Shown here: positions 599 to 15,609 of the stretch, piece after piece
Numbering within the stretch: position 1 is the first letter of the stretch
Layout: each line of letters starts with the position of its first letter
Assembly (NCBI GenBank): GCA_030637655.1
Contig: DAOWGI010000043.1
Span: 1-15,639, forward strand
Direction: 5' to 3'
Origin: a candidate division FCPU426 bacterium
GTDB lineage: Bacteria > Oederibacteriota > JAAXVQ01 > JAUVAV01
Length of the DNA: 15,639 bases
Made by a program: the position numbers and the translations under genes
Notes under the pieces: model-generated
Databases searched by the model: none
Told to the model about the DNA's origin: nothing
What the model saw: the letters and a program-made list of their open reading frames with translations, nothing else

Positions 599-682
599 TG
601 TTCGTCCCTGGTTCCATACTGGTTGTTATCACTATGGCGCCATGGTACAGTAACTGCATCTTTTTGATGGAAGGTTTTGGTT

Positions 683-2557
683 ATGTCATTAATCAGTTTG
701 CGCAATATCCGGATCGCTTTTGGAGGTCCGCTTATTCTGGAAAATCTTTCCCTGGATATTCACAAAGGCCAACGCATCTGTATTCTGGGACGCAATGGCG
801 TTGGCAAGTCTACGCTCATGAAAATCATGTGCCGACAACTCAAGCCGGATTCCGGCGAGATCAGTATGGCATCAGGATTGCAACTAGCCTATCTTTCCCA
901 GGATGTGCCGGCAAACCTGACTGGCACTGCCTTTGAAGTGGTGGCTGCAGGCGCCGGGCCAATTGGTGAAAAGCTGGCATTGTATCACCAAGAACTTTCC
1001 GAACCCACGGATCAGGACTTGCTCCATAAACTACAGCACGAGCTTACTACGCAGGATGGTTGGAAAATCGAGACTGTTGTCAAGCGGGTGCTCAGTCAGG
1101 TTCAGGTTGATCCGGAGGTTCCCTTTGCGTCTCTCTCAGGCGGCATGCGGCGGCGTGTTCTTCTTGCCCGGGCTTTGGTCAACGAACCGGATGTGCTGCT
1201 CCTTGACGAACCGACCAACCATCTTGATCTGAAGTCCATTACCTGGCTGGAAACTTTTCTCCTGTCCTCCAAGCTGACTGTTATTTTTGTTACCCATGAC
1301 CGCCGGCTGCTCCGGAAAGTGGCCACACGTATTATTGAAATCGACCGGGGGAAAGTGGTGGATTGGAGTTGTGACTACCTCACTTTTCTGGAACGCAAGC
1401 AAGCGGTTCTGGATAACGAAGAAAAAGAGTGGGCCCAATTTGATAAAAAGCTGGCCCAGGAAGAGGTGTGGATTCGTCAGGGAATTAAAGCACGGCGCAC
1501 TAGAAATGAAGGACGGGTCCGGGCACTCAAAAAAATGCGGGAAGAAAGGCGCCAACGCCGGGAGCGTATAGGCACGGTCTCGCTGACTATCAGTACTGCC
1601 GAACGCTCAGGCGATAGGGTTCTGCAAGCCAAAAATGTCAGCTTTGCTTATGGTCAAATACCCGTTATCCGGGATTTTTCGTTTACGCTCACACGGGGTG
1701 ATCGCATTGGAATTGTCGGGCCCAATGGTTGTGGAAAAACCACCCTGTTAGATTTATTGCTCGGCAAACTTGCGCCGCACCAAGGTCAAGTCGAACTTGG
1801 CGCCCAGGTACTGCCTGTTTATTTTGATCAACTGCGCCTGGGCATTGATCCTGCTAAAACTGTCTGGGAAAATGTTGTGCCCTCCGGCGGAGACCGGGTT
1901 ACCCTCAATGGTCAGTCCCGACATGTCATAGGTTATCTGCAGGATTTTCTTTTTACCTCAGACCGTGCCAGAACACCGGTCAAACAACTTTCCGGCGGTG
2001 AAAAATATCGCTTGCTGCTGGCCCGGTTGTTTAGCCAGCCCTCCAACCTGCTCATATTTGACGAGCCTACCAATGATCTGGATACCGAGACCTTGGAACT
2101 ACTGGAAGAGGTGCTCTCTGATTATAAAGGCACGCTGCTGGTGGTTAGTCACGATCGTGAATTTTTGAATAACGTTGTCACCTCCGCCTTAATTTTTGGC
2201 AATAATTTTACCGTGAATGAGTATATTGGCGGTTATGATGACTGGAAAAAACAGCTTGATCAAATAATCGCAACCGCCGGCCCGGAACTACTGGTACCAA
2301 AAGAAAAAGCCGTTAAGCCGTACCCAAAAAAGGTGGCCAAAAAATTAGCTTACAAAGAAACCCGGGAACTGGCAGCACTTCCCGGGCTTATTGAATCTTT
2401 GGAAAAAGAGCAGGCAGCGATCCATTATCAGTTGTCGGATTTTGAGCAATGCCGGAAACCGGAATTTATCGCCCAGTCCAATGCGCGCCTGGCTATAATC
2501 GAGAGCGAACTTGCCCAGGCTTATACACGCTGGGAAGCGCTTGACCAGCGTACATGA
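683..2557 (+). CDS. uup: ABC-F family ATP-binding protein, Uup type
   Basis: Two ABC domains: GRNGVGKS / LSGGMRRR / LLLDEPTNHLD and GPNGCGKT / LSGGEKYR / FDEPTNDLD. It has the Uup-typical linker EEVWIRQGIKARRTRNEGRVRALK and the C-terminal coiled coil (KLAYKETREL...YTRWEAL), with no TM segments. ATG 683 (MSLI) after GGAAGG is preferred over TTG 677. Confidence 0.93.
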   Translation: MSLISLRNIRIAFGGPLILENLSLDIHKGQRICILGRNGVGKSTLMKIMCRQLKPDSGEISMASGLQLAYLSQDVPANLTGTAFEVVAAGAGPIGEKLALYHQELSEPTDQDLLHKLQHELTTQDGWKIETVVKRVLSQVQVDPEVPFASLSGGMRRRVLLARALVNEPDVLLLDEPTNHLDLKSITWLETFLLSSKLTVIFVTHDRRLLRKVATRIIEIDRGKVVDWSCDYLTFLERKQAVLDNEEKEWAQFDKKLAQEEVWIRQGIKARRTRNEGRVRALKKMREERRQRRERIGTVSLTISTAERSGDRVLQAKNVSFAYGQIPVIRDFSFTLTRGDRIGIVGPNGCGKTTLLDLLLGKLAPHQGQVELGAQVLPVYFDQLRLGIDPAKTVWENVVPSGGDRVTLNGQSRHVIGYLQDFLFTSDRARTPVKQLSGGEKYRLLLARLFSQPSNLLIFDEPTNDLDTETLELLEEVLSDYKGTLLVVSHDREFLNNVVTSALIFGNNFTVNEYIGGYDDWKKQLDQIIATAGPELLVPKEKAVKPYPKKVAKKLAYKETRELAALPGLIESLEKEQAAIHYQLSDFEQCRKPEFIAQSNARLAIIESELAQAYTRWEALDQRT

Positions 2558-2652: not shown

Positions 2653-3993
2653 CTAAATATATTCCGCCTTCTCCTCACTTCTGGTTTCAGCCAATGGAAG
2701 TGTAAAGCAGAAAGTCGTGCCTGTGCCCGGCTCGCTTTGGGCAACACCCAAATCGCCGCCCTGGAGGCGAATAAGCTGCCGCGAATTGGAAAGCCCCAGT
2801 CCGGTCCCCCGGATTTTCGGGTGCAGGCGCACAAAGGGTTGAAATATTTTATTCCAATCCGCTTTGTCAATCCCGGAACCGGCATCTTGCACACAGGTCG
2901 TAATCAGCTTGTCCTCCACAGCAACTTTTATTTTAATACAACTACTGTCCGGGGAAAATTTTACCGCATTGTCCAGCAAGTTCATAATAACCGGTTTTAC
3001 GATTTCCGGATCTGCCCAGACCAGCTGCTGCCCCGGCGGCCGAATAAATTCAAGTGATATTTTTCTTTTGGCCAGAGACTCCTCAAAATTTTGGCCGGCA
3101 ATCTGAATGAGCTTTACCAAATCAATTTGCCGCGACAGACACTTTACCTGCCCTTTGTTCAGTCTTTCATTATCCTTCAAATTTTCCAGCGTTCGTTTTA
3201 GGGCGTCCGTGTTTTCCCGGATGTTTTTTAGTCCCGCGGTCAATACCGGCACAGGTACGCTCGCCTGCTTCTGATTCAACAAATTGAATATTTTTCCGTA
3301 GATGGCGGTCAGAAATTGCATAGCATGATGGGAAATGGCCCGGATCATCTCCGACTTGGTATTTTCCTCCTGCTGCAATTGCTTCTGGGTCTGATGCAAA
3401 ATGACATTTTGTTTCTCCAAACGGCACTGAGTACTATTCAGGATTACAAGCAAGACTATAACAACGACCAGCAAACTTAGAATCACCCCAATAGCCTGGA
3501 TAATATTGTCCTTGCGTTCCTGAAAATCGGCCAAGGAAAATACAATACGCAACAATTTGAATGTCCGCCGGTCTCCGGAAATTGACAACGGCATATTTAT
3601 ATTTATACTTTGTCTGGTCCTGATAATTTTCAGTTCTTCTTCAGCCGCATCCTTATCCGGAAACCACGGCCGGCCTATGTCCCTCTCATTTCCAGCCTGC
3701 AGCACGCATTCACCGTCAATATAAAATGCCATATACTGAATATGGGAAGTTTTGGTTAAAAGCTGCATTAAATCCAATAAATTATCATATTGCTGCAAGA
3801 GAACAAAATTTTTGGCGGTTTGCCCCATATTGCTCGAAAGTGTTTGATATTCCTTGATTCGATTCTCTTCCATGGCCGAGAGATTAATCCAAACAGCGCT
3901 TGTCATAACCAAGGTAACCACTAAAATGACCGGACTGCTTATCAGAAAATAATGCCGGCGCCACCAAGGTTTTTTGGGGGGGGTGGATTCCAT
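2653..3993 (-). CDS. Membrane-bound sensor histidine kinase (2 TM, extracytoplasmic domain, DHp, HATPase_c)
   Basis: TM1 FLISSPVILVVTLVMTSAVWI and TM2 AIGVILSLLVVVIVLLVIL. H-box AISHHAMQFLTAI, N-box NLLDNAVKFS, G1 VQDAGSGI, F-box IFQPF, G2 GTGLGL. RBS GGAGG at 4005-4001. Confidence 0.92.
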   Translation of the reverse strand: MESTPPKKPWWRRHYFLISSPVILVVTLVMTSAVWINLSAMEENRIKEYQTLSSNMGQTAKNFVLLQQYDNLLDLMQLLTKTSHIQYMAFYIDGECVLQAGNERDIGRPWFPDKDAAEEELKIIRTRQSININMPLSISGDRRTFKLLRIVFSLADFQERKDNIIQAIGVILSLLVVVIVLLVILNSTQCRLEKQNVILHQTQKQLQQEENTKSEMIRAISHHAMQFLTAIYGKIFNLLNQKQASVPVPVLTAGLKNIRENTDALKRTLENLKDNERLNKGQVKCLSRQIDLVKLIQIAGQNFEESLAKRKISLEFIRPPGQQLVWADPEIVKPVIMNLLDNAVKFSPDSSCIKIKVAVEDKLITTCVQDAGSGIDKADWNKIFQPFVRLHPKIRGTGLGLSNSRQLIRLQGGDLGVAQSEPGTGTTFCFTLPLAETRSEEKAEYI

Positions 3994-4025
3994 CCAGCAG
4001 CCTCCATATAGAAATCAATCGGATT

Positions 4026-4054
4026 ATTATAAAATACCCCTGCCACCCTGCCTA
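4026..4054 (-). promoter_or_regulatory. Possible sigma70 promoter for the kinase
   Basis: Minus strand TAGGCA (4054-4049), 17-nt spacer, TATAAT (4031-4026). The -35 matches consensus only 4/6. Confidence 0.35.
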
Positions 4055-4064
4055 CTTAAATTCG

Positions 4065-4276
4065 CGGAATTTTGTAATATGTCAGTGAACTAATGGAAAG
4101 AAAATTAACCGCCGATAAACGCCGATAAATACGGATTAAAAATTTTTTTATCTCTTAAGCTATAAATATCTGCGTTTATTTGCGTTCATCGGCGGTTAAT
4201 TTTGGTTCCGGTTTATCCGGATTAGGTTTTTCTCTCTTCACTGACTTGTTACGGAATTTTGTATCATGTCAGTGAA
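4065..4276. repeat. 25-bp direct repeat pair bracketing the inverted-repeat element
   Basis: 4065-4089 cggaattttgtaatatgtcagtgaa versus 4252-4276 cggaattttgtatcatgtcagtgaa (23/25 identical). Confidence 0.85.
4101..4203. repeat. About 100-bp inverted-repeat (MITE/REP-like) element built of 10-nt submodules
   Basis: aaaattaaccgccgat (4101-4116) is the perfect reverse complement of 4188-4203. Pairing extends imperfectly to 36 bp (4117-4136 with 4168-4187, 14/20). Internal 10-nt periodicity: cgccgataaa x2 on the left and tgcgtttat/tgcgttcat on the right. Confidence 0.8.
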
Positions 4277-4284
4277 GAGAGAAA
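4229..4284. terminator. Long hairpin 17 nt downstream of the barrel-SBP gene (terminator or mRNA-stabilising stem)
   Basis: tttctctcttcactgac (4229-4245) pairs perfectly with gtcagtgaagagagaaa (4268-4284). There is no U-tract on the minus strand, so intrinsic termination is uncertain. Confidence 0.45.
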
Positions 4285-4301
4285 GACATATGGTCTGCTG
4301 G

Positions 4302-6320
4302 TTACTGTTTGCTTGGTACCAGACGATCGCAGTCCAAGGTTTTTAATATTTTTTTGCCGCGACCATCTTTGTGCATAGCTTCACAGATTTTAATCAGCAG
4401 TTCTATTTTTTTTAGTTTATCTTTGCTTAAGCTGGTCCGAACAGCCACCGGGGCAAAAGGCACTTTCCTTTCCGAGGTCGCAATAATTTTCACACCTTTG
4501 CGCATGGCCTTTTGCTCTGCTTGATAGGCGCTGAGTATATATTTCAAGCCTACAATCACGTCAATCTCTTTCATTTGCAGGGCCAGGAGACAGGCACGGG
4601 TACTCTCACAGCGATTAATTTTTTCAAAGACCTTTCCCAACTGAACGTCCTCGAGCTGTTTAAAAAAGAATTTTTTCAAATAATAAATATCTTCTAAATT
4701 GACATACCCCAAGCGTTTTCCCTGCAAATGATCAAGCTGCGTAATTTGGTCATCCTCTCTGACAATCAGACAATACGGAGAAGAAACTTCCCCGTGTTTC
4801 TTGCGGTTTAATACCGGTCGAGCCACACCTTGTTTTTTTAGTTTTTGGTAGATACCGTAAAATTCAAGCACCACATCGATCTCGCCCTTTTCCAAGGCAC
4901 GGCTCAATTCTGCGGTACTATTGAATCTGCGCAATTCCAATTGCAGGCCGCTTTTACTTTCAAGGTACTCCTCCAAATAACCAACCTGTTTTAATACCGC
5001 TTGAATGTTCCGAAGATCCGTCAACACCTTGGTTTCCGTGCCAATGATAATCCTGTCTTCCTGGTGCCGGATGACTTTAACGGGCAATGTTTTTTTAGCC
5101 ACTTTTATTTTCGGCCGGGAAACAGAAGAACGGCTTTTTTTCGCTTTGTCTTTTTGCGCCTCCTTGAATTCCTGGTACTCCATGAATTGTTTGAATTTTA
5201 CAAATTCCGGATCTGCCAGGATTTGTTGACTGGCCTCTTCCTGGGACAGGTCTTTTTTTGGTTTTTTTATTTCCGGGGTTTTGGCCGCCGGTTGCTCCGG
5301 CTTGATCACGGTGACTACTTGCTTTGGCTTTTCTTGCCGCTCCCAACAAAAGGTTAGGCCCACGCGATGCGAGCCCCAATTATCCGGAATATGAAAAGAA
5401 TAGCCAAAAGCATAATCAAATTGCAGGGATAACGGCCGGCCCGGCCGGCTATATTTAAAACTCAAGCCACTGGTAAAACGGTTGGTATTTATTCCTGTCC
5501 GTAAGGCAAAAATTTTCTTGATGATCCAGGCTTCCACTCCCAATTTGGGCACATAAACATTATTGCGCGCTGTGATCTCAAATATTGTTTGCAGGTAATC
5601 CATGTTTGTCCGGTTCCAGTACCAGCGATAGGCCAGGCCCAGACGCACAATGATTGGGATGACTTCGGATACAGTCAAACCCATGTCCACGGGTATAATA
5701 TTATCTATAGCCAAACCAACATTAAAATCCTTAGCTATACCGGCCAATAAACCCAGGTCCGCGGTCAGGCCCCATTTATGTCGCTCCTTATAAGGAAAAT
5801 AGGCCGGATCAGTAGTATAGTCATTGGCCTCGACCAACCATTGCAGCCCTTTTAAAGTAATTCCCGCCTCCAGCCCCTCCTGGGATAAAAGCCTGCGGCC
5901 ATAGGACAAACTAAAGGTGTTTTCCTTATAAAAAGTGGAATTAAACTGTTTCCAGGCCAGGCCAAACGCTCCGGCTGCGGCCTTGAGCGGTATGGCGGCA
6001 GAGACCATATGATATCCGGCATAGTCTGATTGACCGGTATACAAACGGGCCTTGAGATTAGAATACAGGTCAGAATACATACCCATAATTTCAATATCAG
6101 CAATGCGCGCAAACCCGGCGGGATTGTACATAACCGTGTTGGCATCATCAGCCACACTCACAAAGGCTTCACCCATACCTGCCGGCCGCACTCCGTAAGC
6201 GCTTTCCTGAAAATAGGCCTGCGCAGACATCGCCATTAGGCTGAAAAACAAGCATCCCACCTGCAGTGCGACTGTTTTAAGCATTTCTTTTTTCAGAATC
6301 GTTTGCGGCAATTTTCTCAT
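4302..6320 (-). CDS. PorV/PorQ-like (FadL-superfamily) outer-membrane beta-barrel fused to a C-terminal PhnD/SsuA-type periplasmic substrate-binding domain
   Basis: Signal peptide ending AQA. PorV/PorQ-type N-terminal motif GVRPAGMGEAFVSVADDANTVMYNPAG. Amphipathic strands end FDYAF...HRVGLTFCW (about aa 326). Lys/Pro/Glu-rich linker aa ~327-422. Then a PBP2 domain with ALEKGEIDV, YCLIVREDDQITQLDHLQGKRLGY and IIATSERKVPFAPVAVR. Confidence 0.8.
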   Translation of the reverse strand: MRKLPQTILKKEMLKTVALQVGCLFFSLMAMSAQAYFQESAYGVRPAGMGEAFVSVADDANTVMYNPAGFARIADIEIMGMYSDLYSNLKARLYTGQSDYAGYHMVSAAIPLKAAAGAFGLAWKQFNSTFYKENTFSLSYGRRLLSQEGLEAGITLKGLQWLVEANDYTTDPAYFPYKERHKWGLTADLGLLAGIAKDFNVGLAIDNIIPVDMGLTVSEVIPIIVRLGLAYRWYWNRTNMDYLQTIFEITARNNVYVPKLGVEAWIIKKIFALRTGINTNRFTSGLSFKYSRPGRPLSLQFDYAFGYSFHIPDNWGSHRVGLTFCWERQEKPKQVVTVIKPEQPAAKTPEIKKPKKDLSQEEASQQILADPEFVKFKQFMEYQEFKEAQKDKAKKSRSSVSRPKIKVAKKTLPVKVIRHQEDRIIIGTETKVLTDLRNIQAVLKQVGYLEEYLESKSGLQLELRRFNSTAELSRALEKGEIDVVLEFYGIYQKLKKQGVARPVLNRKKHGEVSSPYCLIVREDDQITQLDHLQGKRLGYVNLEDIYYLKKFFFKQLEDVQLGKVFEKINRCESTRACLLALQMKEIDVIVGLKYILSAYQAEQKAMRKGVKIIATSERKVPFAPVAVRTSLSKDKLKKIELLIKICEAMHKDGRGKKILKTLDCDRLVPSKQ

Positions 6321-7789
6321 TTAATAAGCACCACTTTTCCCATGCTACTGCGCTCCTGCGTTTGAATCTGAAATATATATACTCCTCCTTCACATAAATG
6401 GCCGGCCTCGCTGCTGCCGTCCCACTCTGACACATTTCGCAAAGTCCGCACCAGACGGCCTGCTATATCCCAAATGCGAATCATATACTCTCCTTGTTCT
6501 TCCAGCGAAGCAAGCTGAAATTGAGTTCGCTGTCCTAAGGCAGGAAGAAAAGGATTTGGAGTTGCGGCTCCTCTTTCTCCCAGAAACGTGGGAGGTCGTG
6601 TCTCGGTGCTTACCGGAGTATTGGACGGAGTAACTGTCGGCGTTGCTGAAAGTGGAAAAGTATAGTGCTGCACTATGGCCTGGGCGGGAAATTCATTTTC
6701 ATACCAAGTTACATAAAGTGTTGAGTCGGAAGCTGCCAGCCGTGGTCGAACGCCGTCAATATCAGGATTAACATTTAAACTTCCACCAACCTGTGTCCAG
6801 GTTGAAAAATTCCTGGTTTTAACAATGATTTGCTGCTTAAATCCGTTACTTTCCTGCCAAGCAACATAAGGTGTAGCTAGATGAAATACTATTGAAGGGT
6901 AGTCCGCATCGCGATTGGGATCATTATTTAGCGCTCCTCCCAGGGTTGACCATATACTGCCGGTCCAATATCTAACATAAATTTGACTGTTAATGCCATT
7001 TTCCTGGGCAAACGCTATATAGGGTGTGCTGTTGTAAAAACAAAGACTTTGATGGTTGGCATTTTCAACGGTATTTATATTTACACTACCCCCCACTTGC
7101 TCCCAATCACTCCCATTCCAAAATTTGACATAGATTTGAGTAGCACTGCTAGTCTCTTCCACCCAGGCAATATAAGGAGTATATTCATTGAACACCAAAC
7201 TTGGCCAGACTGCGGTTTCGTTGGGATTTATGTTGATACTTGAGCCTAATTGCTCCCAGGTACTTCCATTCAAATATTTAACATAAGCTAAATAAACAAA
7301 CTCCCCGTTATCTTCAGACCAGGCAATATATGGCGTGTTATTTGATATCGTTACCTCCGCATACCAAGCACTTTTATTAACATCCAAATTAATATCTCCG
7401 CCCACGCGGATCCAGGTGTCAGTGTCCCATTTTTTAACAATTACTTTATAAGCATCACCAATATGTTCCGACCAGGCGACATACGGTGTGTAATATAAAA
7501 TATCAATATTCGGCATGATTGCGCTTCGGTTACTAAAAACATTCAAACTAGTGCCAAGGGCTATCCAAGCGCTGCCTGTCCACAGTTTGACGTAAATTTT
7601 ATTAGGAGACCCGCCTTCCTGCCAGCATACAATAGGGGTATTTTGTGTGACTGCAATACTGGGATATGAAGCATTAACTTCAGGGTCTGTGTTCAGACTT
7701 CCTCCATCTTGGACCCAACTACCCCAAGCCAAAGAGGCCAATGAAAAAAGGCCCAGAATTTGCAGCAGCCATATTTTTTTCATTTTCAT
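6317..7789 (-). CDS. Secreted 7-repeat beta-propeller protein with Thr/Pro linker and C-terminal FlgD-Ig / T9SS-like sorting domain
   Basis: Signal peptide. Seven repeats of 46-52 aa, consensus W.Q.GG.(L/I)N......A..P.(I/L).....PY(V/I)AW.E......IYVK.W.G (aa 25-376). Linker ATPTVTPSNTP. Tail PNPF...IRIWDIAGRLVRTL...WDG...GVYIFQI...KVVLIK. Its stop overlaps the next start (ATGA, 6320-6317). Confidence 0.85.
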   Translation of the reverse strand: MKMKKIWLLQILGLFSLASLAWGSWVQDGGSLNTDPEVNASYPSIAVTQNTPIVCWQEGGSPNKIYVKLWTGSAWIALGTSLNVFSNRSAIMPNIDILYYTPYVAWSEHIGDAYKVIVKKWDTDTWIRVGGDINLDVNKSAWYAEVTISNNTPYIAWSEDNGEFVYLAYVKYLNGSTWEQLGSSININPNETAVWPSLVFNEYTPYIAWVEETSSATQIYVKFWNGSDWEQVGGSVNINTVENANHQSLCFYNSTPYIAFAQENGINSQIYVRYWTGSIWSTLGGALNNDPNRDADYPSIVFHLATPYVAWQESNGFKQQIIVKTRNFSTWTQVGGSLNVNPDIDGVRPRLAASDSTLYVTWYENEFPAQAIVQHYTFPLSATPTVTPSNTPVSTETRPPTFLGERGAATPNPFLPALGQRTQFQLASLEEQGEYMIRIWDIAGRLVRTLRNVSEWDGSSEAGHLCEGGVYIFQIQTQERSSMGKVVLIK

Positions 7790-8034
7790 CCTATCTGTTT
7801 CATGAATAATATAACTTAATTTTGCACGTGAGTAAGCTAAAAAAATATTCCCATCTGAGCGGGCGCTATAAAATATGTTTTCAACCAGCTTATAGCTCCA
7901 AAGGGAGACTCCCCCGGATGGTTAAGTCCAAGCATAGAGAAAAAACACAAAGTATTCAAGTTGAAAGTGAGGAATGCAGTAACAGGTCAGTCATGCGTTT
8001 TTTTGTTTGTCATCCGTGAATGCAGCCCCCACCC

Positions 8035-8166
8035 TGTCATCCCCGAATGCTTGTATCCCCGATAAGAGCATTCGAGGACGGATATGGTTTAAAAAATCAG
8101 ATTCCTGCCGAATGCGTCCCTATATATCTTTTCCGGTCGGGGCCGATTAAACCCTCGGAAATGACA
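8035..8166. repeat. Degenerate palindromic element bounded by TGTCAT...ATGACA
   Basis: tgtcatccccga (8035-8046) versus tcggaaatgaca (8155-8166), 10/12 inverted. Internal hairpin tccccgaatgct (8040-8051) with agcattcgagga (8067-8078), 11/12. Confidence 0.6.
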
Positions 8167-8320
8167 AAATCGGGGAAATTGGCTCAAATTGTCTTTTGGC
8201 GACACTTCCATAAAGTATGCGAACCTAACAATTGAGAATTGAGCTGTGCTGGAATAATAAATTTAGATTTTGATGCAAAATTCAGGCGCTAAATTACGCA
8301 CGGCTTCCTTAAACTGCGCC

Positions 8321-10312
8321 TTACTCATATCGCAAGGCTACAATAGGATTGAGTTCCGCCGCTTTTTTAGCAGGCCACAAGCCGAAAACCAAGCCAATAA
8401 TCACTGAAAACATGGTCACCATCATTACCGAGGAACCCGATATGCTGATCGCCCAGCCGGTAAATGTCGTTAACAGTACTGCAATACCCACGCCAACGGC
8501 TATGCCTAAAATACCGCCGCAAAAGGTCATTACAATAGCTTCGATCAGAAACTGGAGCATAATATCTTTTTTGCGCGCGCCAATGGCTTTGCGCAAACCG
8601 ATCTCGCGCGTCCGCTCGGTTACTGAGACCAGCATGATATTCATAATACCAATCCCGCCGACCAGCAAAGAGATGGCTGCGATACAACCTAAGAGCGTGG
8701 TCATGGTTTTGGTCATACTCTGCAACGCTTCCTGAATCTCCGCCATATTGCGGATCGAGAAAGCGTTTTCCGCGTTCTCTGCCTTCACCTTATGACGTTT
8801 TACCAGCAGATCCCGAATCGCCTGCTCAGCCGGTTCCATGAACTTAAGATCATCGATTTCCACATCCATGGAATCGACGTACTTTTTGCCCAGGATGCGG
8901 TACATGGCCGTGGTTACCGGCATCACAATCATATCATCCTGATCACCACCAAACCCCGACCCTTTTTCCGGCAGCACACCTATCACCTGAAACTGGATCC
9001 GGTTGATTTTTATCATTTTCCCAACCGGATCCACATCTCCAAAAATTTCAGTTCTCACGGTCTGGCCGAGCAAAGCCACTCGCTGTCGCTTTCTAATTTC
9101 ACTTTCCACAAAATACCGGCCAATGACAGGTTCTGCCGAACGCATTTGCGCATAATCCAGACCCTGACCATAAATAGTGGTGTTCCAGTTTTTATTGCCA
9201 TACACAACCTGCCCTCTGCCCCGCACCTTGGCAGATACCCGTTTGATATGCGGCACCGTGGCCAACACTTTAGCATCCTTAAGTGTAAAGCGGGTGACTG
9301 ATCCGGCTTCCCGGGCAACCCCGCCACGATGCCAGCCGCCGGAGCGAACGCTGAGAAGATTGGTGCCCAGAGATGACATTCTCTCTTGCATGGATTTTTC
9401 CGCGCCTTTTCCCAAGGCCAGCATGGCGATAACCGAAGCCACGCCAATGAGTATGCCCAGCATGGATAAAAAGGATCTCATTTTATTGGCAAGCAGCGCT
9501 TGAAATCCCTGACGTAGATTCTCCGCAATTTCAACCAGAACCATTTTGGCCGGGTGATACGCTTCTTTCTCCTTGGCCCGATGGGTTATTGAATCCGGCT
9601 TGGCTTTACTTTTGGCGATTTTTTTCACGCTTTCATCGGAAATTATCTTGCCGTCACGCATCCAAATAATACGGTTCGCCTGCTCTGCCAACTCCCGTTC
9701 ATGGGTAACCAAGATAATAGTTTTACCTTGACGATGAAGTGTTTTTAAAAGAGCAAATATTTCTTTCTCGCTTTTTGAATCCAGATTCCCAGTCGGCTCA
9801 TCCGCAAATATGACCAAGGGATTATTGACCAAAGAACGTGCTATGGCCACACGCTGCTGCTGACCGCCGGACAGCTCATTGGGTTTGTGATCCTCTCTGT
9901 CACCCAGACCGACTTGATTAAGTTTTTCTTCAGCCATCCGGCGCATATTATTGTGACCGCTGTAAATCAGAGGCAAGGCAACGTTTTCCAACGCGGATAC
10001 GCGCGGCAATAGATGAAATTGCTGGAACACAAAGCCGGCATAGTTATTGCGAATTGAAGCCAGGTCATCATCGTTTAAGCGAGAAACATCTTTTCCATTT
10101 AAATGATAGGTTCCTGAGTCCGGACGATCCAGCAGCCCCAAAATATGCAGCATTGTTGATTTGCCTGATCCGGATGGTCCCATAATGGCTACAAACTCAT
10201 TGTTTTGAATATCCAGGGAAACATTTTGCATGGCACGGACTTCATTATTGCCAATGCGATAGGTCTTGGACACATTTTTTATCCGGATAACCGCGTCCTG
10301 CTTGGGCTTCAT
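8321..10312 (-). CDS. macB: MacB-family ABC exporter, fused ATPase and permease
   Basis: GPSGSGKS, LSGGQQQRVAIAR, IFADEPTGNLD. TM1 RSFLSMLGILIGVASVIAM, a periplasmic domain, and the FtsX-type C-terminus GGIGIMNIMLVSVTERTREIGLRKAIGA...LNPIVALRYE. Confidence 0.95.
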   Translation of the reverse strand: MKPKQDAVIRIKNVSKTYRIGNNEVRAMQNVSLDIQNNEFVAIMGPSGSGKSTMLHILGLLDRPDSGTYHLNGKDVSRLNDDDLASIRNNYAGFVFQQFHLLPRVSALENVALPLIYSGHNNMRRMAEEKLNQVGLGDREDHKPNELSGGQQQRVAIARSLVNNPLVIFADEPTGNLDSKSEKEIFALLKTLHRQGKTIILVTHERELAEQANRIIWMRDGKIISDESVKKIAKSKAKPDSITHRAKEKEAYHPAKMVLVEIAENLRQGFQALLANKMRSFLSMLGILIGVASVIAMLALGKGAEKSMQERMSSLGTNLLSVRSGGWHRGGVAREAGSVTRFTLKDAKVLATVPHIKRVSAKVRGRGQVVYGNKNWNTTIYGQGLDYAQMRSAEPVIGRYFVESEIRKRQRVALLGQTVRTEIFGDVDPVGKMIKINRIQFQVIGVLPEKGSGFGGDQDDMIVMPVTTAMYRILGKKYVDSMDVEIDDLKFMEPAEQAIRDLLVKRHKVKAENAENAFSIRNMAEIQEALQSMTKTMTTLLGCIAAISLLVGGIGIMNIMLVSVTERTREIGLRKAIGARKKDIMLQFLIEAIVMTFCGGILGIAVGVGIAVLLTTFTGWAISISGSSVMMVTMFSVIIGLVFGLWPAKKAAELNPIVALRYE

Positions 10313-11295
10313 TGTCTCCGGCCCCCTCCTCTACCTTTCCTTATGTTGGGCATAAAGGGATTATTCTTATTTTTGCTTTTATCTTTACCTTTCCATTGCT
10401 GATTATTTGAGACAATCACTACAATATCATCTGTTGACAAACCCTGTATGATTTCCACATGCGTTAAATCGGAAATTCCCAGCTCGACCTTTCGAGGCCG
10501 AAAGGGCCGCTCCCCTTCGCTTTTTACCATGACAAGAGACCGTCCCTCTCTTTGTATAACAGCAGTAGCGGGAATTTTGAGCACATTCTCTTTTTGTTTT
10601 TGAATCACTTCAATATTTGCGCTCATGCCCGAGCGAAAGACCTTCGGGACCTGATCAGGAATAATCTCCACGTGATAGATGGTCACATTGTTGACCACTG
10701 TCGATTCATATGAGATATGCTCAACCTGGCCGGTAACCCTCACATCCGGATAAGCATCCAACTCGATAACCGCTTTTTGTCCCACCGCAATATTCCCGAC
10801 ATCCGTCTCATCCACTGTGGCATTGATCATAAGCCGGTCGGATAACACAAAGAGCGCATCCGCCGCGCTAACTGTTTGCCCCGGCTCGATATTGCGAACA
10901 ATCACTTTGCCGTTAATTGGCGCAATAATGGGCGTTGCCTTGTAAGCATTCTCCCAATACTGCAGTTCTTCGGGATCTTTCATGCGCGCAGCATCCAGCA
11001 GCGCCGCCCGTTCGGTGGAACTCAGCAAAGCCAGGATTTGTCCGGTTCGGACACTTTCTCCCTCTTTGACCATAATTTTCTCCACCCGGCCGCTGATGGG
11101 CGGTTTGAGCTCCAAACGGTTTTGCGGTTCCACGGTCCCGGTGGTGGAAATCGAAGTCTTAATGGTTCCCAGTTCGGGTATTATCTCCTCCATCTGAACC
11201 GCTGGTTTTCGCGGAACCAGTGTCTTCCATATCCAAAACCCCAAGACCAACACCAACAGCAGACTTGCACTTAACATAAGTGTTTTCTTATTCAT
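10309..11295 (-). CDS. macA: MacA-family periplasmic adaptor (membrane fusion protein)
   Basis: N-terminal TM anchor; lipoyl halves ELKPPISGRVEKIMVKEGESV and IIAPINGKV; VDETDVGNIAVGQ; FRSGMSANIEV; VELGISD. Overlaps macB by 4 bp (ATGA) and tolC by 8 bp. Confidence 0.92.
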   Translation of the reverse strand: MNKKTLMLSASLLLVLVLGFWIWKTLVPRKPAVQMEEIIPELGTIKTSISTTGTVEPQNRLELKPPISGRVEKIMVKEGESVRTGQILALLSSTERAALLDAARMKDPEELQYWENAYKATPIIAPINGKVIVRNIEPGQTVSAADALFVLSDRLMINATVDETDVGNIAVGQKAVIELDAYPDVRVTGQVEHISYESTVVNNVTIYHVEIIPDQVPKVFRSGMSANIEVIQKQKENVLKIPATAVIQREGRSLVMVKSEGERPFRPRKVELGISDLTHVEIIQGLSTDDIVVIVSNNQQWKGKDKSKNKNNPFMPNIRKGRGGGRRQ

Positions 11296-12532
11296 GCTCC
11301 AAACCCTCTCCCTTGGTCTGAATCCATTGAGCTTCAGCCAGCAGCTGTTCAGCCTGTGAATTCAAATATGATTTTTGTGCTGTGACCAACCGGTCTTCAA
11401 TAATTGCCCAATCGTCAAACTCCACCAATCCGCTGGAATACTGGGCATTGGTGATTTTGGCACGCGCTTGGGCAGCTTGCAGATACATCTGCTGGACGCG
11501 TATCTGCCCGGCGGCATTTTGCAGGGCTGTCCATTTTTGTTCCAAATTAAATTGAACACTATCTTTTTGGCTTTGTGCATTGTTCTCCGCCTGTTGGAGC
11601 GCGTATCTGGTTTTAGAGATGGCGGCCATTTTGGCGCCGCCGGCAAAGAGCGGCAAAGATAAGCTAACCCCGCCGGACACATTTGTTTCTTCAGGGAAAA
11701 AATGATTGTCCTCCAGACCGGCTGAGGCGCTTAGATAAATCGAAGGATAGAGTTCTGCATAGGCAGCTTGCACCGACCAGCGGACTGCTTCTGTGGCCGC
11801 CTGCGATTCCTTCACTTCCGGCGTGTTGAGCATCAAGGCCGGAATATCCGGTGCTTGGGAAATATCCTGCTCCACGGCAAAAGAACCGGCCACCTTAATC
11901 GGCGTGTCGGGAATCCCAATTACTTTGACCAGTTTTTGTTCGGCTAATTTATGATTTCTCCGGGCTTGTTTGACTTCAAATTCTGCTTGGGCTAAATCCG
12001 CTTCTGCGCTCAACCGTGAACCAACATGTTCACGACCGGCTGCATAGCGAAGTTTGACTAAATCAACATTTTGTTTTCTTCTTTTCGCGATGACCCCGGT
12101 CAGTTTTAATAATTCACTGTTTTTCAGCAAACCGATAAAAGCTTCTTTGAGTTGATAACGGATGAAAGCTGAGGTGATGGCAAAACGGCTCTCGGCTGTT
12201 TCCAGTTGCGCCTGTGCTTTGCCTATTGCCGCCGGTGTTTTGAACCCGTCAAATATCAATTGCCGAACCGATATGCCGGTTGAATAGCTCTCACTGCCTG
12301 AACTTGTTCTAACCGAAGCACTCAAATCCGCCTGAGGATACCACTTGCTGTAAGCAATGGCTAAATCTTCTCGGGTCTGTTGAAGCTCTGCATCTGCTGC
12401 TAAGAAATTCGGATTTTGTTTTTTAGCAGTTTGCACACAATCGGCCCAACCGTTTATTTCAGCCGCTGCTGCATTTTGGAATATGGCATATACCAGGAAG
12501 CCGGTACAGATTCCTTTTAAATATCGCGTCAT
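11288..12532 (-). CDS. TolC-family outer-membrane efflux protein
   Basis: Two OEP repeats: QNP...YPQADLSAS...RQLIFDGF and YPSIYLSAS...LSLPLFAGG...YSSG. The start is reassigned to ATG 12532 (MTRYLKG...AAAA signal peptide) because AAGGAG lies just upstream; ATG 12604 has no such RBS. Confidence 0.9.
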   Translation of the reverse strand: MTRYLKGICTGFLVYAIFQNAAAAEINGWADCVQTAKKQNPNFLAADAELQQTREDLAIAYSKWYPQADLSASVRTSSGSESYSTGISVRQLIFDGFKTPAAIGKAQAQLETAESRFAITSAFIRYQLKEAFIGLLKNSELLKLTGVIAKRRKQNVDLVKLRYAAGREHVGSRLSAEADLAQAEFEVKQARRNHKLAEQKLVKVIGIPDTPIKVAGSFAVEQDISQAPDIPALMLNTPEVKESQAATEAVRWSVQAAYAELYPSIYLSASAGLEDNHFFPEETNVSGGVSLSLPLFAGGAKMAAISKTRYALQQAENNAQSQKDSVQFNLEQKWTALQNAAGQIRVQQMYLQAAQARAKITNAQYSSGLVEFDDWAIIEDRLVTAQKSYLNSQAEQLLAEAQWIQTKGEGLEHE

Positions 12533-12883
12533 TTCAGCTACTCCTTTTGTCTTGCATATATAGCCGACTTTATAGATTGGAAATATTGTTTGGAAAAATT
12601 CCATACTGCCGTTTTTACATTTGTTTATTACTTATTTCACATCATATCCGGATAGTACTTTGAGCTTACATATAGTATGCTTTTGAAAGGAAAAAAGATT
12701 CATTTTTTTGCTTGGTTTTTCGAAAAAATAGGCGTCAACAGGTTATCCAGCCGGGTGGCCTGAGGGGTTCACGCCTTCCTCGGCTTAAACCCTATTCTTT
12801 CTCCGTGCCCTCTGTGCTTAATGCTTTTCACAGGAAGATCAGGATGGTGCGTGGCACATGTTTATTTTGTTGTGACACATTGT

Positions 12884-13182: not shown

Positions 13183-15609
13183 TTACTTGACGGCCGTAAT
13201 CTTTAGTATAATCACGACCTGCTTGTGGTCTTTGCTCTGCTCGAATTTCAAGCGCGAAAGCAGGCGCATAACCTTCTTCTTCAAATCCTTATTATTGAAG
13301 GTGTCCTTTTTCACATCCACTTTCACAACCTTGCCTTTGTCATCTACGGTCAGGTGTACTTCATATTCTCCGGATTTTCCGGTTTGGGCGATCACCTGCG
13401 CAATGTAGTTTTGTTGTTTGGCAATAGCTTTTTCCACCTGCGCTTTATCCAGTTGTCCTTTAATCTTTTGCACTTGAATCTTGCAGCTTTGGATAAGCTG
13501 TTTGTATTCTGCGCGGTCCGTTTTTTCTTCCGTTTTTTCTTCCTCTGCTACTCCCGGCTTTGAAAGCGGGGACGGTGCCGACGCGCGAGTGCTCATCAAA
13601 CTGTGCCTGGTGCCAATTCCTTTTCGTTTGTAAGATTTTTTCCTTTTTACCGCGTAGGAAGAAGCACGCGGGGCCTTGGCAGGCTGACTGCCGCCCACTG
13701 CTTGGTTGGATACGCCTTGCGGTAAGGGCAGCGGTTGTTTGACTGTATACCGTGGTTTGCCGTCCGTGCGTTTTTTCGTATCCACAGCCACAAATGAGGT
13801 GTAGTCGGTTAATAAATTATAGTCTAATCCGAGTTGGGTCACTTGTTTCACGCGTTTGTCATCAGGCGACAATTTCACCATATCCGCCAAGCGAATAATA
13901 CGATGGCGCGCCCACAGATAACGCAGAGCCTTGTTCTTGGTCGAAATCTTACCTTCGCTAATACGAATGGTCTGTTTGTATTCCTGCCCGGCTGTTTTAC
14001 CGGTAATTGTCACAGTCCCGCGCGGCGTGCCCTGGTATTTGCCAAACACGACCACTGGTTTTTTGGCAAACATATCCGGAATGGACTGCGGTTCCACGTC
14101 ACTGACGTTCATGCCATTGAATTTCACTTTAATGTCCGTTAAAACCGGAGCTTCAATGTATTCTCTGAATTGTTTGGCCTTACGCGCGGCTTCTTTTTGG
14201 TTCAGGATAATAAACGGTTCACCCATACCGGCTCGTGCCATACCCTCGATTAGAAAGCGATTGACTGAGCTGCCAATACCAAAGGTGAATACATTGCCCT
14301 TGTTCAAATTGTTGCGGATATATTCAAAAGCATCTTTTTCCACGGACACATACCCGTCGGTCACAATAATCATGCTGCGGGAGATGTTCTCTTCTGCGCG
14401 CGGCAAAGCCATGGCTGCGCGCAAGGCCGGCATGAGCTCAGTTCCGCCGCCGCCGCGCTGGCGCGCGACCAGAGCAATGGCTTTTTGCAGATTAGCTTGG
14501 TTGGCAGGCAGCGAGCTCTCTGAGAGCACCCGGTTGCTGCCGGCAAAGAGCATCACATTAAAGAAATCCGTAGAACGTAAATTGCCGAGCAGATCTTTCA
14601 TCAAGCCTTTGGCCACATTCAGGGGGAATCCGTGCATGGATCCGGAGATATCAATGATGAAAATATATTCGCGCGGAACAATCATTTTGGTCTCAACCCG
14701 CTTGGGCGGTTCAAGCATGAGCAGGAAAAAATCCTCTTTTTTGCCTATATTCATCAACAACCCGCTCTCGATCTTATCGCCGGCTAAACTGTATTGAATT
14801 ACTACATCGCGATTGTTGGTGGTGTTGCTCTCTTTCAGGCCAAGGTGCGCGCTGGTTTTGCCGGTATACTCAATATCCACATCATGGCTGGGACTGGTCA
14901 GCTTGGCAATTGGAATACCACTGTTGATAGTCAGGCCAAACCCAAACGTGAAAGGAGCATCTTTGCCCTCTTCCAAATACGGGTTGGCAACCCACTTGTC
15001 CTGCGGACCGGCCGAGGCTTCGGTCTGATTGGAATAGCGCGGACCCACCACTGTGGGATAAACAAATTCATAGGTGCTGTCTTTTGGCACTAAAAGTTCA
15101 GTATAATTTAATTCCACTTTGATCTCATCTTTGGGAAGGATGTTGCCCACATTCATCTGGAATACATTGGGCCGCTGCTGCTCAAGCAAGGAGGCGGTCC
15201 TGCCTGCTTGCAAGGCTTTTTCATAGGTCTCTCTGGCTTTTTGGCGTTCCTGTATCTCGGCTTCAATCACGCGGCGGCCTATGGTCATGCGCATGGCATA
15301 GACCGCAGCGCGGGATGAGGCTGGAAAAATGTATATGGCTTCCAAGGTGTTCTTGCCCTCGTTCTTATATACCTGGGTAACTTTCACGTCCGCGATCACA
15401 CCGGAGATGGTTACATCCGCGCGTGTGCTCTTGAGCGGCAGTTTGTCCACTGTTGGATCATCACTCTTTATAAAAAAATAGGGCGAAAGCGTTTTGTCCA
15501 AATTTTGCTCCGGCCTTAAAACCGTCTCAGCTGTTCCCACCAATGGGAGTGCTGCGCAAAAGGCGCTGATCAACAACAGGTGCTTCAAATAGTTTTTAAA
15601 ACGTTTCAT
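13183..15609 (-). CDS. Secreted VIT-vWA (inter-alpha-trypsin-inhibitor-like) protein with a C-terminal TonB-C / AgmX-PglI-like domain
   Basis: RBS AAGGAGGA and a signal peptide. VIT domain LPLKSTRADVTISGVIADVKVTQVYKN...EAIYIFP...ASLLEQQRPNVF. vWA MIDAS FIIDISGSM / GGTEL / IIVTDGY. LLTDYTSFVAVD. Low-complexity linker, then a ~100-aa alpha/beta tail. Confidence 0.88.
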   Translation of the reverse strand: MKRFKNYLKHLLLISAFCAALPLVGTAETVLRPEQNLDKTLSPYFFIKSDDPTVDKLPLKSTRADVTISGVIADVKVTQVYKNEGKNTLEAIYIFPASSRAAVYAMRMTIGRRVIEAEIQERQKARETYEKALQAGRTASLLEQQRPNVFQMNVGNILPKDEIKVELNYTELLVPKDSTYEFVYPTVVGPRYSNQTEASAGPQDKWVANPYLEEGKDAPFTFGFGLTINSGIPIAKLTSPSHDVDIEYTGKTSAHLGLKESNTTNNRDVVIQYSLAGDKIESGLLMNIGKKEDFFLLMLEPPKRVETKMIVPREYIFIIDISGSMHGFPLNVAKGLMKDLLGNLRSTDFFNVMLFAGSNRVLSESSLPANQANLQKAIALVARQRGGGGTELMPALRAAMALPRAEENISRSMIIVTDGYVSVEKDAFEYIRNNLNKGNVFTFGIGSSVNRFLIEGMARAGMGEPFIILNQKEAARKAKQFREYIEAPVLTDIKVKFNGMNVSDVEPQSIPDMFAKKPVVVFGKYQGTPRGTVTITGKTAGQEYKQTIRISEGKISTKNKALRYLWARHRIIRLADMVKLSPDDKRVKQVTQLGLDYNLLTDYTSFVAVDTKKRTDGKPRYTVKQPLPLPQGVSNQAVGGSQPAKAPRASSYAVKRKKSYKRKGIGTRHSLMSTRASAPSPLSKPGVAEEEKTEEKTDRAEYKQLIQSCKIQVQKIKGQLDKAQVEKAIAKQQNYIAQVIAQTGKSGEYEVHLTVDDKGKVVKVDVKKDTFNNKDLKKKVMRLLSRLKFEQSKDHKQVVIILKITAVK

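Follow-up and report, generated by a model that had tools for sequence, protein, structure and literature searches.

A conserved gene cluster joining a PorV-like barrel, a solute-binding domain, and a sensor kinase in a candidate division FCPU426 bacterium

Does an outer-membrane barrel that probably holds a secreted protein at the cell surface pass information inward, or does it anchor a receptor in the periplasm? The question is raised by contig DAOWGI010000043.1 from a candidate division FCPU426 bacterium (assembly GCA_030637655.1; 3.28 Mb; completeness, 91.55%), which was analyzed over its entire 15,639 nucleotides (hereafter the window; contig C49 of genome G000). Three co-oriented open reading frames (ORFs) on the minus strand encode a secreted cargo (6317-7789, 490 aa), a barrel fused to a solute-binding protein (SBP) domain (4302-6320, 672 aa), and a membrane histidine kinase (2653-3993, 446 aa). 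The ORF positions confirm the three-gene layout described by a first-pass annotation, including the ATGA stop/start overlap of the cargo and fusion genes and the 308-bp gap between the fusion and kinase genes. That annotation had proposed a relay in which a type IX secretion system (T9SS)-like cargo, held outside by its C-terminal domain (CTD) on the barrel, signals through the SBP domain to the kinase. We find that the architecture is real, conserved, and apparently undescribed, and we favor, with a probability of about 0.55, another reading: an AioXSR-type three-component cascade in which fusion to a cargo-anchoring barrel ties the accessory receptor to the outer membrane. The features are as follows.

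6317 to 7789, minus strand: secreted cargo of 490 aa (signal peptide, seven ~51-aa repeats, Thr/Pro linker, C-terminal sorting domain)
6320 to 6577, minus strand: T9SS-like CTD of the cargo, aa ~405 to 490 (TIGR04183, 22 bits; subtype tied to the barrel subfamily)
5343 to 6215, minus strand: 14-stranded outer-membrane barrel of PorV/FadL fold, aa ~36 to 326 of the 672-aa protein (AlphaFold2 model, fold match)
5061 to 5342, minus strand: predicted periplasmic tether of 94 aa (disordered segments flanking a single ~35-aa helix)
4305 to 5060, minus strand: PhnD/AioX-fold SBP domain, aa 421 to 672 (PF12974, E = 1e-24)
4074 to 4252, no strand: ~180-bp palindromic repeat, present genome-wide, between the fusion and kinase genes
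4026 to 4054, minus strand: sigma-70-like consensus match, putative own promoter of the kinase gene, just 5' of it
2653 to 3993, minus strand: membrane histidine kinase of 446 aa (transmembrane segment TM1, ~130-aa sCache-like sensor, TM2, DHp His222, N/G1/F/G2 boxes)

We then looked into the neighborhoods of related barrels. When 41 genomes were searched, the best 150 matches listed included 40 to the barrel subfamily at E < 1e-55, and these 40 were all inside 15 genomes of the order. All 40 loci were inspected; the L144 barrel, which is truncated where its contig stops, was excluded from the comparison of 16 SBP-tailed barrels with 23 barrels carrying an OmpA tail, a TPR tail, or no tail. 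A kinase of the family was found at ≤5 kb from 15/16 SBP-tailed barrels versus 0/23 of the others (Fisher P = 6e-10, a value that is overstated, since related loci are not independent). The 16 fusions came from eight genomes and two families and showed several gene orders. A gene for the same CTD subtype was located at ≤5 kb from 14/16 SBP-tailed barrels, from 21/23 other barrels, and also from the truncated L144 barrel. The synteny check proposed with the first-pass annotation thus came out in favor of the gene cluster. An NtrC-type regulator at 14/16 SBP-tailed barrels and an extracytoplasmic function (ECF) sigma gene at 10/16, in the DNA available, had been overlooked in the circuit drawn by that annotation, although its three genes do co-occur.

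The barrel-SBP/kinase family is small and lineage-bound. An SBP profile run over 99 genomes of the phylum gave 25 matches at E < 1e-28, all within the order, and a sensor profile likewise placed the kinase family inside the order alone, with 32 matches spread over 11 of the 99 genomes. A profile search of 1.84 billion representatives, combined with a word search, recovered 25 full-length fusions; the fusion homologues P0007, P0011, and P0012 (34 to 47% identity) bear the NCBI label candidate division FCPU426. A metagenome scan with the fusion alignment yielded only generic PorV-like barrels among the matches listed, and neither the SBP family nor the kinase family was found at any of 79 generic PorV-like metagenome loci, many of which are short. 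A genome-collection scan with the kinase gave no matches.

The 25 family SBPs comprise 16 that are fused to a barrel, 1 contig-end fragment, 3 fused to CBM-like repeats, and 5 free proteins. Since the SBP occurs in three architectures and adjoins a family kinase in 22/25 cases, the constant unit is thus the SBP, the kinase, and the regulator, usually with the ECF sigma factor, and the barrel is one of several attachments of the SBP. The free SBPs are coupled to an upstream gene, which belongs to the TolC family in the four scanned cases and is truncated in the fifth. At these five loci (L041, L042, L043, L046, and L049), the SBP gene overlaps the TolC-family gene and is followed by the kinase and regulator genes (and an ECF gene in four); they are a barrel-less form of the cascade. 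In four proteins (L050:8020-9780, L053:221-2674, L057:2875-5283, and P0137), two to three CBM-like repeats of ~140 aa, so labeled from their sequence pattern and having no Pfam match, are fused directly to a family SBP; this CBM-like domain is also the N-terminal part of many cargos at barrel loci. In total, SBP-kinase pairs without a barrel were found at 7 loci. The other constant unit is the pair of barrel and CTD protein, whose periplasmic tail is swappable: SBP-tailed barrels interleave with OmpA- and TPR-tailed ones in a FastTree phylogeny, and the highest identity of the window barrel (57%) is to an OmpA-tailed barrel. The locus is the meeting point of these two modules.

We then analyzed the fusion protein. 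Its AlphaFold model (mean predicted local distance difference test [pLDDT] score, 76.7) consists of a barrel of 14 strands at aa 77 to 326, a tether, and a two-lobed SBP domain at aa 423 to 669. The PorV-like nature of the barrel, suggested by the first-pass annotation, was borne out: among 48,161 chains, the best fold match was 6h3i_F, from a T9SS translocon entry (Z = 24.0, root mean square deviation of 2.9, 263 aligned residues), a chain that we take to be PorV, and a FadL homologue followed closely (Z = 22.9). With 53.2 bits against the PorV_fam model NF033709 (cut-off, 90; E = 3e-14), the barrel is, on sequence grounds, a distant relative of the PorV/PorQ family. Its N-terminal hatch motif, N66-P67-A68-G69, is invariant, and the mature start A-Y-F is conserved and has no lipobox cysteine. 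In the tether, pLDDT drops below 50 at aa 331 to 366 and 392 to 419, with a helix at aa 361 to 395. Across the 25 fusions, the linkers vary from 55 to 272 aa, none being shorter than 55 aa; they are Pro-rich or helical and share no common sequence, which counts against signal transfer from the outside through them.

The SBP domain scored above the cut-off for PF12974 (E = 1e-24), and its best fold match among the same 48,161 chains was ArrX (Z = 22.2). ArrX and AioX outranked the transport proteins PtxB and PhnD both in Foldseek and in a profile search of PDB sequences, so that the assignment of the domain to the type that serves kinases as accessory receptor held up by fold and by sequence. 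The profile alignments to AioX and ArrX showed other residues at the positions of the AioX oxyanion pocket, and the phosphonate pocket is not retained either; the domain scored 35.7 bits against TIGR03431 (cut-off, 261). Sensing of phosphonate or arsenic was therefore rejected, since the pocket residues differ. No ABC permease or ATPase genes for an SBP and no arsenic molybdoenzyme genes were found in the window, and reading of the other loci by eye revealed none either. Because the pocket residues are lost and conservation across 40 rows concerns structural positions only, a shared oxyanion ligand is unlikely; either the SBP paralogues bind different ligands or the SBP domain is a protein adaptor.

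The kinase has hydrophobic segments at aa 16 to 34 and 167 to 185, separated by a loop of ~130 aa, followed by a long helix after TM2 and no HAMP domain. It matches HATPase_c with intact N, G1, F, and G2 ATP-binding boxes, and His222 is invariant in 29 family rows. The fold search with the full-length kinase assessed the cytoplasmic part only; the label sCache-like for the sensor stems from language-model neighbors (score of 0.93 with 158 shared features, a lead only) and from the secondary structure of the model. All SBP-linked kinases fall in one clade of 29 rows in the kinase tree (support of 92/100, under the starred mark). No kinase-SBP fusion was found among proteins of 782 to 2,230 aa, which is weak evidence. 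The idea that the window kinase, with a second His after the phospho-His, is a decaying copy was rejected, the same H-box being present in P0021, P0022, and L048; a His-His box also occurs in three TolC-type loci. Beside the orthologous kinase in genome G004, we noted by eye an apparent peptide-export ABC transporter and radical-SAM cluster (L048:1482-7132).

Does the SBP domain act on this kinase? We consider direct contact likely. A complex prediction with SBP aa 421 to 672 and kinase aa 36 to 168 scored 0.54 versus 0.00 for the best of three controls, with 100% agreement of contacts between runs and partner pLDDT values of ≥79. The mark used for such scores is reached by 116/157 solved pairs and 2/215 mismatched pairs. 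We regard this pass as weak, because the scores that reach the mark but are ≤0.60 include only 18 solved pairs along with both mismatches, and it may reflect resemblance to solved SBP-sensor complexes. Two kinases (L054:7655-8803 and L056:1865-2908) have lost the sensor core, their loops measuring 46 and 40 aa versus 116 to 135 aa, and no SBP was seen in the DNA around them (L056 sits close to the end of its contig); they branch with the barrel-SBP kinases (80/86 support). Residues Y69 and T80 and their neighbors, in the distal turn of the sensor, are kept in ~79% of 24 rows and in 0/5 SBP-less kinases, a difference that descent confounds.

A regulator gene was located at ≤500 bp from 29/31 complete kinase frames, the exceptions being the window and one contig-end case. 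The genome of the window has three kinases and three regulators of this family, the latter on contigs C35, C60, and C20, and the unpaired ones are the window kinase and the regulator at G000:C20:8832-10247. In genome G004, the regulator beside the orthologous cargo-barrel pair (L144) has this C20 orphan as its best match (55% identity), and the orthologous locus of G004 seems to be split over three contigs that we join by inference: L048 with the kinase, L144 with the regulator, cargo, and barrel, and L035 with the SBP. From these sequence comparisons, the regulator missing from the window is probably the C20 orphan.

The rpoN gene is present in the genome, over the cut-off. With what we take to be the sigma-54 -24/-12 consensus, we found matches 5' of 17/23 ECF regions (22 distinct genes) compared to a shuffle mean of 1.3, the genome-wide background being 234/1763 upstream regions. 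These sites persist even beside regulators with strongly altered GAFTGA loops. The Walker B motif of the family regulators (L021 to L056, G000:C35, C60, and C20) is often Asn-Glu; the C20 regulator carries a one-residue variant of GAFTGA, and 4/7 other enhancer-binding proteins of the genome have the exact motif. Two NtrC-type regulators (L047:6584-8203 and L050:5229-6758) have the most decayed ATPase motifs and, by eye, OmpR-like C-terminal tails; together with the lack of a sigma-54 site before their ECF genes, this decay suggests that they switched sigma class. The genes 3' of the ECF genes encode mostly secreted proteins or exporters, and no anti-sigma-like gene was seen beside the family ECF genes in the loci read by eye. 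A search for an ECF promoter motif gave nothing convincing (information content of 7.0 to 7.5 versus 6.4 to 6.8 in two shuffles per set), and no regulon promoter motif was found before cargo operons. A sigma-54 site is present 5' of the L022 cargo operon; in a scan of 24 regions, a site scoring 10 of 10 preceded only one cargo operon. On contig C20 (G000:C20:8832-22550), a TolC-RND operon has a sigma-54 site before it and the orphan family regulator at its end; before it comes a propeller-CTD cargo that has no barrel and shares 40% identity with the cargo of the window, next to an ORF of 9,463 aa. Secreted proteins with 36-aa repeats are encoded immediately 3' of family ECF genes at L041:2838-5165, L047:613-5709, and G000:C35:18518-20143.

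The cargo has a signal peptide, read by eye, and seven repeats of 50 to 52 aa that, judging from their pattern, form a probable 7-blade beta-propeller, followed by the Thr/Pro linker; an Atlas search with the propeller returned no informative family. Its CTD scored 22 bits against TIGR04183 (cut-off, 23; E = 1e-4), and a profile of this CTD subtype returned, for the genome of the window, 5 strong matches and 44 weaker ones. The N-terminal domains of the cargos vary (propeller, LamG, CBM_4_9, and SBBP). SprA-like frames of 2,138 to 2,223 aa were found in 4/4 relatives (G002:C4, G006:C1, G009:C2, and G014:C1), one of them over the cut-off. The model for GldM, the only motor/ring subunit searched, had no match in 5 genomes, the positive control being equally silent. 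Peptidase_C25 genes are present in three of the four SprA-bearing relatives, and the lineage carries about 20 to 30 PorV-like genes per genome. At a paralogous locus of the same genome (G000:C35:7769-12203), reading by eye showed an NHL-like cargo split over two frames and, between cargo and fusion, a hipA-like pair and a hydrolase gene.

We propose that these parts work as follows. A SprA-like translocon would export the cargo, and the CTD would hold it on its own PorV-like barrel, as the fold and the gene pairing suggest. The C-terminal tail of the barrel, whose architecture is modeled and whose topology we infer, would reach into the periplasm through a long flexible or helical tether with the SBP domain at its end. 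The SBP domain would dock on the sCache-like domain of the kinase and control its activity, a step for which the genomic evidence argues strongly and the structural evidence weakly. The kinase would phosphorylate an NtrC-type regulator, here, judging from orthology, the orphan at G000:C20:8832-10247. The regulator would in turn drive promoters with the observed sigma-54 motif, at most loci that of an ECF sigma gene, which usually has genes for secreted proteins behind it, and, on C20, that of the TolC-RND operon. The barrel would act as an anchor and co-localizer rather than as an allosteric wire; we favor this role because tethers of 55 to 272 aa without a common sequence suit periplasmic reach better than allostery. 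The input would most likely be read in the periplasm near the barrel and could be a ligand other than an oxyanion, varying from paralogue to paralogue, or simply the reach of the SBP domain to the kinase, as for QseG.

Several observations weigh against this cascade. One fusion (L033) has no kinase within 7 to 8 kb, one CBM-SBP fusion (L057) has no kinase on its 9.8-kb contig, and 10/32 family kinases have no adjoining SBP, three of these lying at contig ends and several having a full sensor loop. The regulator of the window kinase is elsewhere than on the window contig, and the scarcity of exact GAFTGA, found in only 2/27 family regulators, fits sigma-54 activation poorly. No SprA-like gene was found in the assembly of the window, which is 91.55% complete. 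Lastly, the co-evolution check suggested by the first-pass annotation found nothing linking SBP and sensor over and above common descent: the parts are all inherited together (Mantel r of 0.30 to 0.76), and in partial Mantel tests controlled for the regulator and the kinase core, the correlation fell to r of 0.05 to 0.11 (P of 0.15 to 0.34, n of 15 to 21). The residual signal in the 21-locus set was with the cytoplasmic part of the kinase (r = 0.23, P = 0.007). The SBP-kinase half of the proposed relay is backed by synteny and by a complex score weakly above its controls but not by co-evolution.

The cascade has to be weighed against a relay through the barrel, in which ligand-bound cargo signals via its CTD and the barrel, or a ligand passes through the barrel, to the SBP domain and the kinase. 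A CTD cargo is near 14/16 fusions but is equally beside 21/23 barrels that have neither SBP nor kinase, and L030 has a fusion and a kinase but no cargo gene within 5 kb. The variable N-terminal domains of the cargos would fit interchangeable receptors, and the FadL-like fold (Z = 22.9) is one common to transporters; the barrels themselves, however, interleave in the tree irrespective of their SBP, OmpA, or TPR tails, and their Pro-rich or helical linkers of 55 to 272 aa have no sequence in common. Direct fusion of a CBM-like cargo domain to the SBP, in three locus proteins and one further representative, speaks for a cargo-to-SBP route, while SBP-kinase pairs that dispense with the barrel at 7 loci speak against one that runs through it. 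We thus find outside-in transfer through the barrel, the core of the first-pass annotation, unlikely. A wider claim would be that of a new class of surface signaling in which exchangeable T9SS receptors clip onto a barrel that passes ligand or occupancy to the SBP, firing the kinase, sigma-54, and ECF steps without TonB or an anti-sigma factor; the CBM-like-SBP fusions would then represent this receptor without its barrel. This claim, too, we hold to be improbable.

It could also be that the genes are together by co-location only, the fusion and cargo being regulated by, or carried along with, a cassette of kinase, regulator, and ECF genes, the kinase sensing alone, and the SBP serving otherwise. 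Full sensor loops without an SBP occur in five kinases outside the main clade and in L047 inside it, co-evolution gave no specific signal, and in the window a putative promoter lies just 5' of the kinase gene while a repeat stands between that gene and the fusion. Yet the SBP family and the kinase stay neighbors in three architectures and under several gene orders, the closest structures of the SBP are signaling SBPs, and the loci read by eye show no ABC permease or ATPase genes with which it might work; as to the cargo operons, no regulon motif was found before them, and among 24 regions scanned, a high-scoring sigma-54 site preceded only one cargo operon. We judge such mere co-location unlikely as well. 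More doubtful still is a feedback circuit like PorA-PorY-PorX-SigP, in which unexported CTD, bound in the periplasm by the SBP or by the kinase, is the signal and the cascade tunes export or anchoring. This would agree with the reported role of the PorA CTD, which activates PorY from within the periplasm in a pathway leading to an ECF sigma factor (PMC12152298), with an SBP pocket devoid of conserved small-ligand residues, with the mostly secreted proteins or exporters encoded downstream of the ECF genes, and with the sigma-54 sites before the C20 TolC-RND and L022 cargo operons. It is at odds with the identical CTD subtype beside kinase-free barrels and with the TolC-coupled SBP-kinase loci, which have no gene of the window CTD subtype.

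Each half of the proposed cascade has close precedents in AioXSR, QseG-QseE-QseF, and PorA-PorY-PorX-SigP. AioXSR and ArrXSR share with it a PF12974 SBP without a transporter, an sCache-like kinase sensor, and a regulator acting at RpoN promoters, but AioX is a stand-alone periplasmic protein, whereas here the SBP is fused to a barrel, the AioX pocket is lost, and the output is an ECF sigma gene (PMC5908839, PMC8050422); that pocket binds arsenic oxyanions via Cys106, Tyr131, Ser161, Ser163, His192, and Asp210 (PMC5908839). The adjoining kinase and sigma-54-type regulator of AioXSR recur across our family, with the regulator of the window on another contig. QseG is an outer-membrane lipoprotein that activates the kinase QseE, and QseF acts on sigma-54 promoters, among them the one of the ECF gene rpoE (PMC6075780, PMC12691602); shortening of the QseG tether abolishes activation (PMC12691602). 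The likeness, one of description, lies in an outer-membrane-anchored accessory protein that spans the periplasm to the kinase and in a sigma-54 regulator with an ECF target; the difference is that the anchor here, instead of being a lipoprotein, is an integral barrel of 14 strands that probably has a surface cargo, and that the contacting domain is of SBP fold (PMC6075780, PMC12691602).

PorA-PorY-PorX-SigP of Porphyromonas gingivalis likewise brings together in one circuit a cargo with a CTD, the barrel PorV, a membrane kinase, and an ECF sigma factor, but there the CTD binds the kinase in the periplasm, PorV is not needed, and no SBP takes part (PMC12152298). Here, the genes are clustered, the barrel bears an SBP, and the regulator is of the NtrC type. 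Barrel genes linked to their own CTD cargo and a periplasmic partner are described for the T9SS pairs PorP-PorE-PG1035 and SprF-SprB, with type B CTDs, PorP-like barrels, and a separate PorE (PMC9143113, PMC12618676); PorE also carries OmpA and TPR domains, like the tails of the sister barrels (PMC12773672). The present barrel differs in being PorV-like, with a fused periplasmic part that in this clade is an SBP linked to a kinase. Full-text searches, whose coverage leaves out most subscription journals, did not find the barrel-SBP-kinase combination.

The remainder of the window adds the following. The spacer between the fusion and kinase genes folds strongly (z of -9.2 versus shuffles), as the first-pass annotation had read, but copies of 4074-4252, 92 to 97% identical, lie on at least 6 other contigs, 4254-4301 has 11 to 22 genome matches per position, and the spacing is -4 to 28 bp at the 8 other loci that have the fusion directly 5' of the kinase. 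Because of these genome-wide copies and the short gaps elsewhere, the structure stems from an inserted repeat and is not a property of the module, and a role as the regulatory RNA of the module was rejected. The spacer region contains 15 sigma-70-like sites versus 10.5 ± 3.7 in shuffles, i.e., chance level. A second genome-wide repeat family, with tens of matches per position, occupies 7979-8167. Genes for a MacB-type ABC permease, an HlyD-type adaptor, and a TolC-family protein (8321-12604, minus strand) are 5' of the cargo on the same strand, parted from it by a gap with repeats, and none were seen beside other loci. An 808-aa VIT-vWA protein with a weakly TonB_C-like C terminus (E = 0.044) is encoded at 13183-15609 (minus strand), and an ABC-F family ATPase at 677-2557 (plus strand) is convergent with the kinase, at the place that the response regulator occupies elsewhere.

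Known links from the outer membrane to kinases are, in the accounts cited, lipoproteins, namely, QseG (PMC6075780) and NlpE and RcsF (PMC12152298). If the cascade proposed here is true, an integral barrel bearing the accessory receptor of a kinase, and probably anchoring a secreted protein as well, would be a new type of anchor, and T9SS-like surface display would be tied to gene control outside the Bacteroidota. The family offers natural controls, with barrels carrying OmpA, TPR, or SBP tails, SBPs on barrels, on CBM-like repeats, or free, and sensor-less kinases, and these make it testable whether a PorV-like barrel passes information inward.

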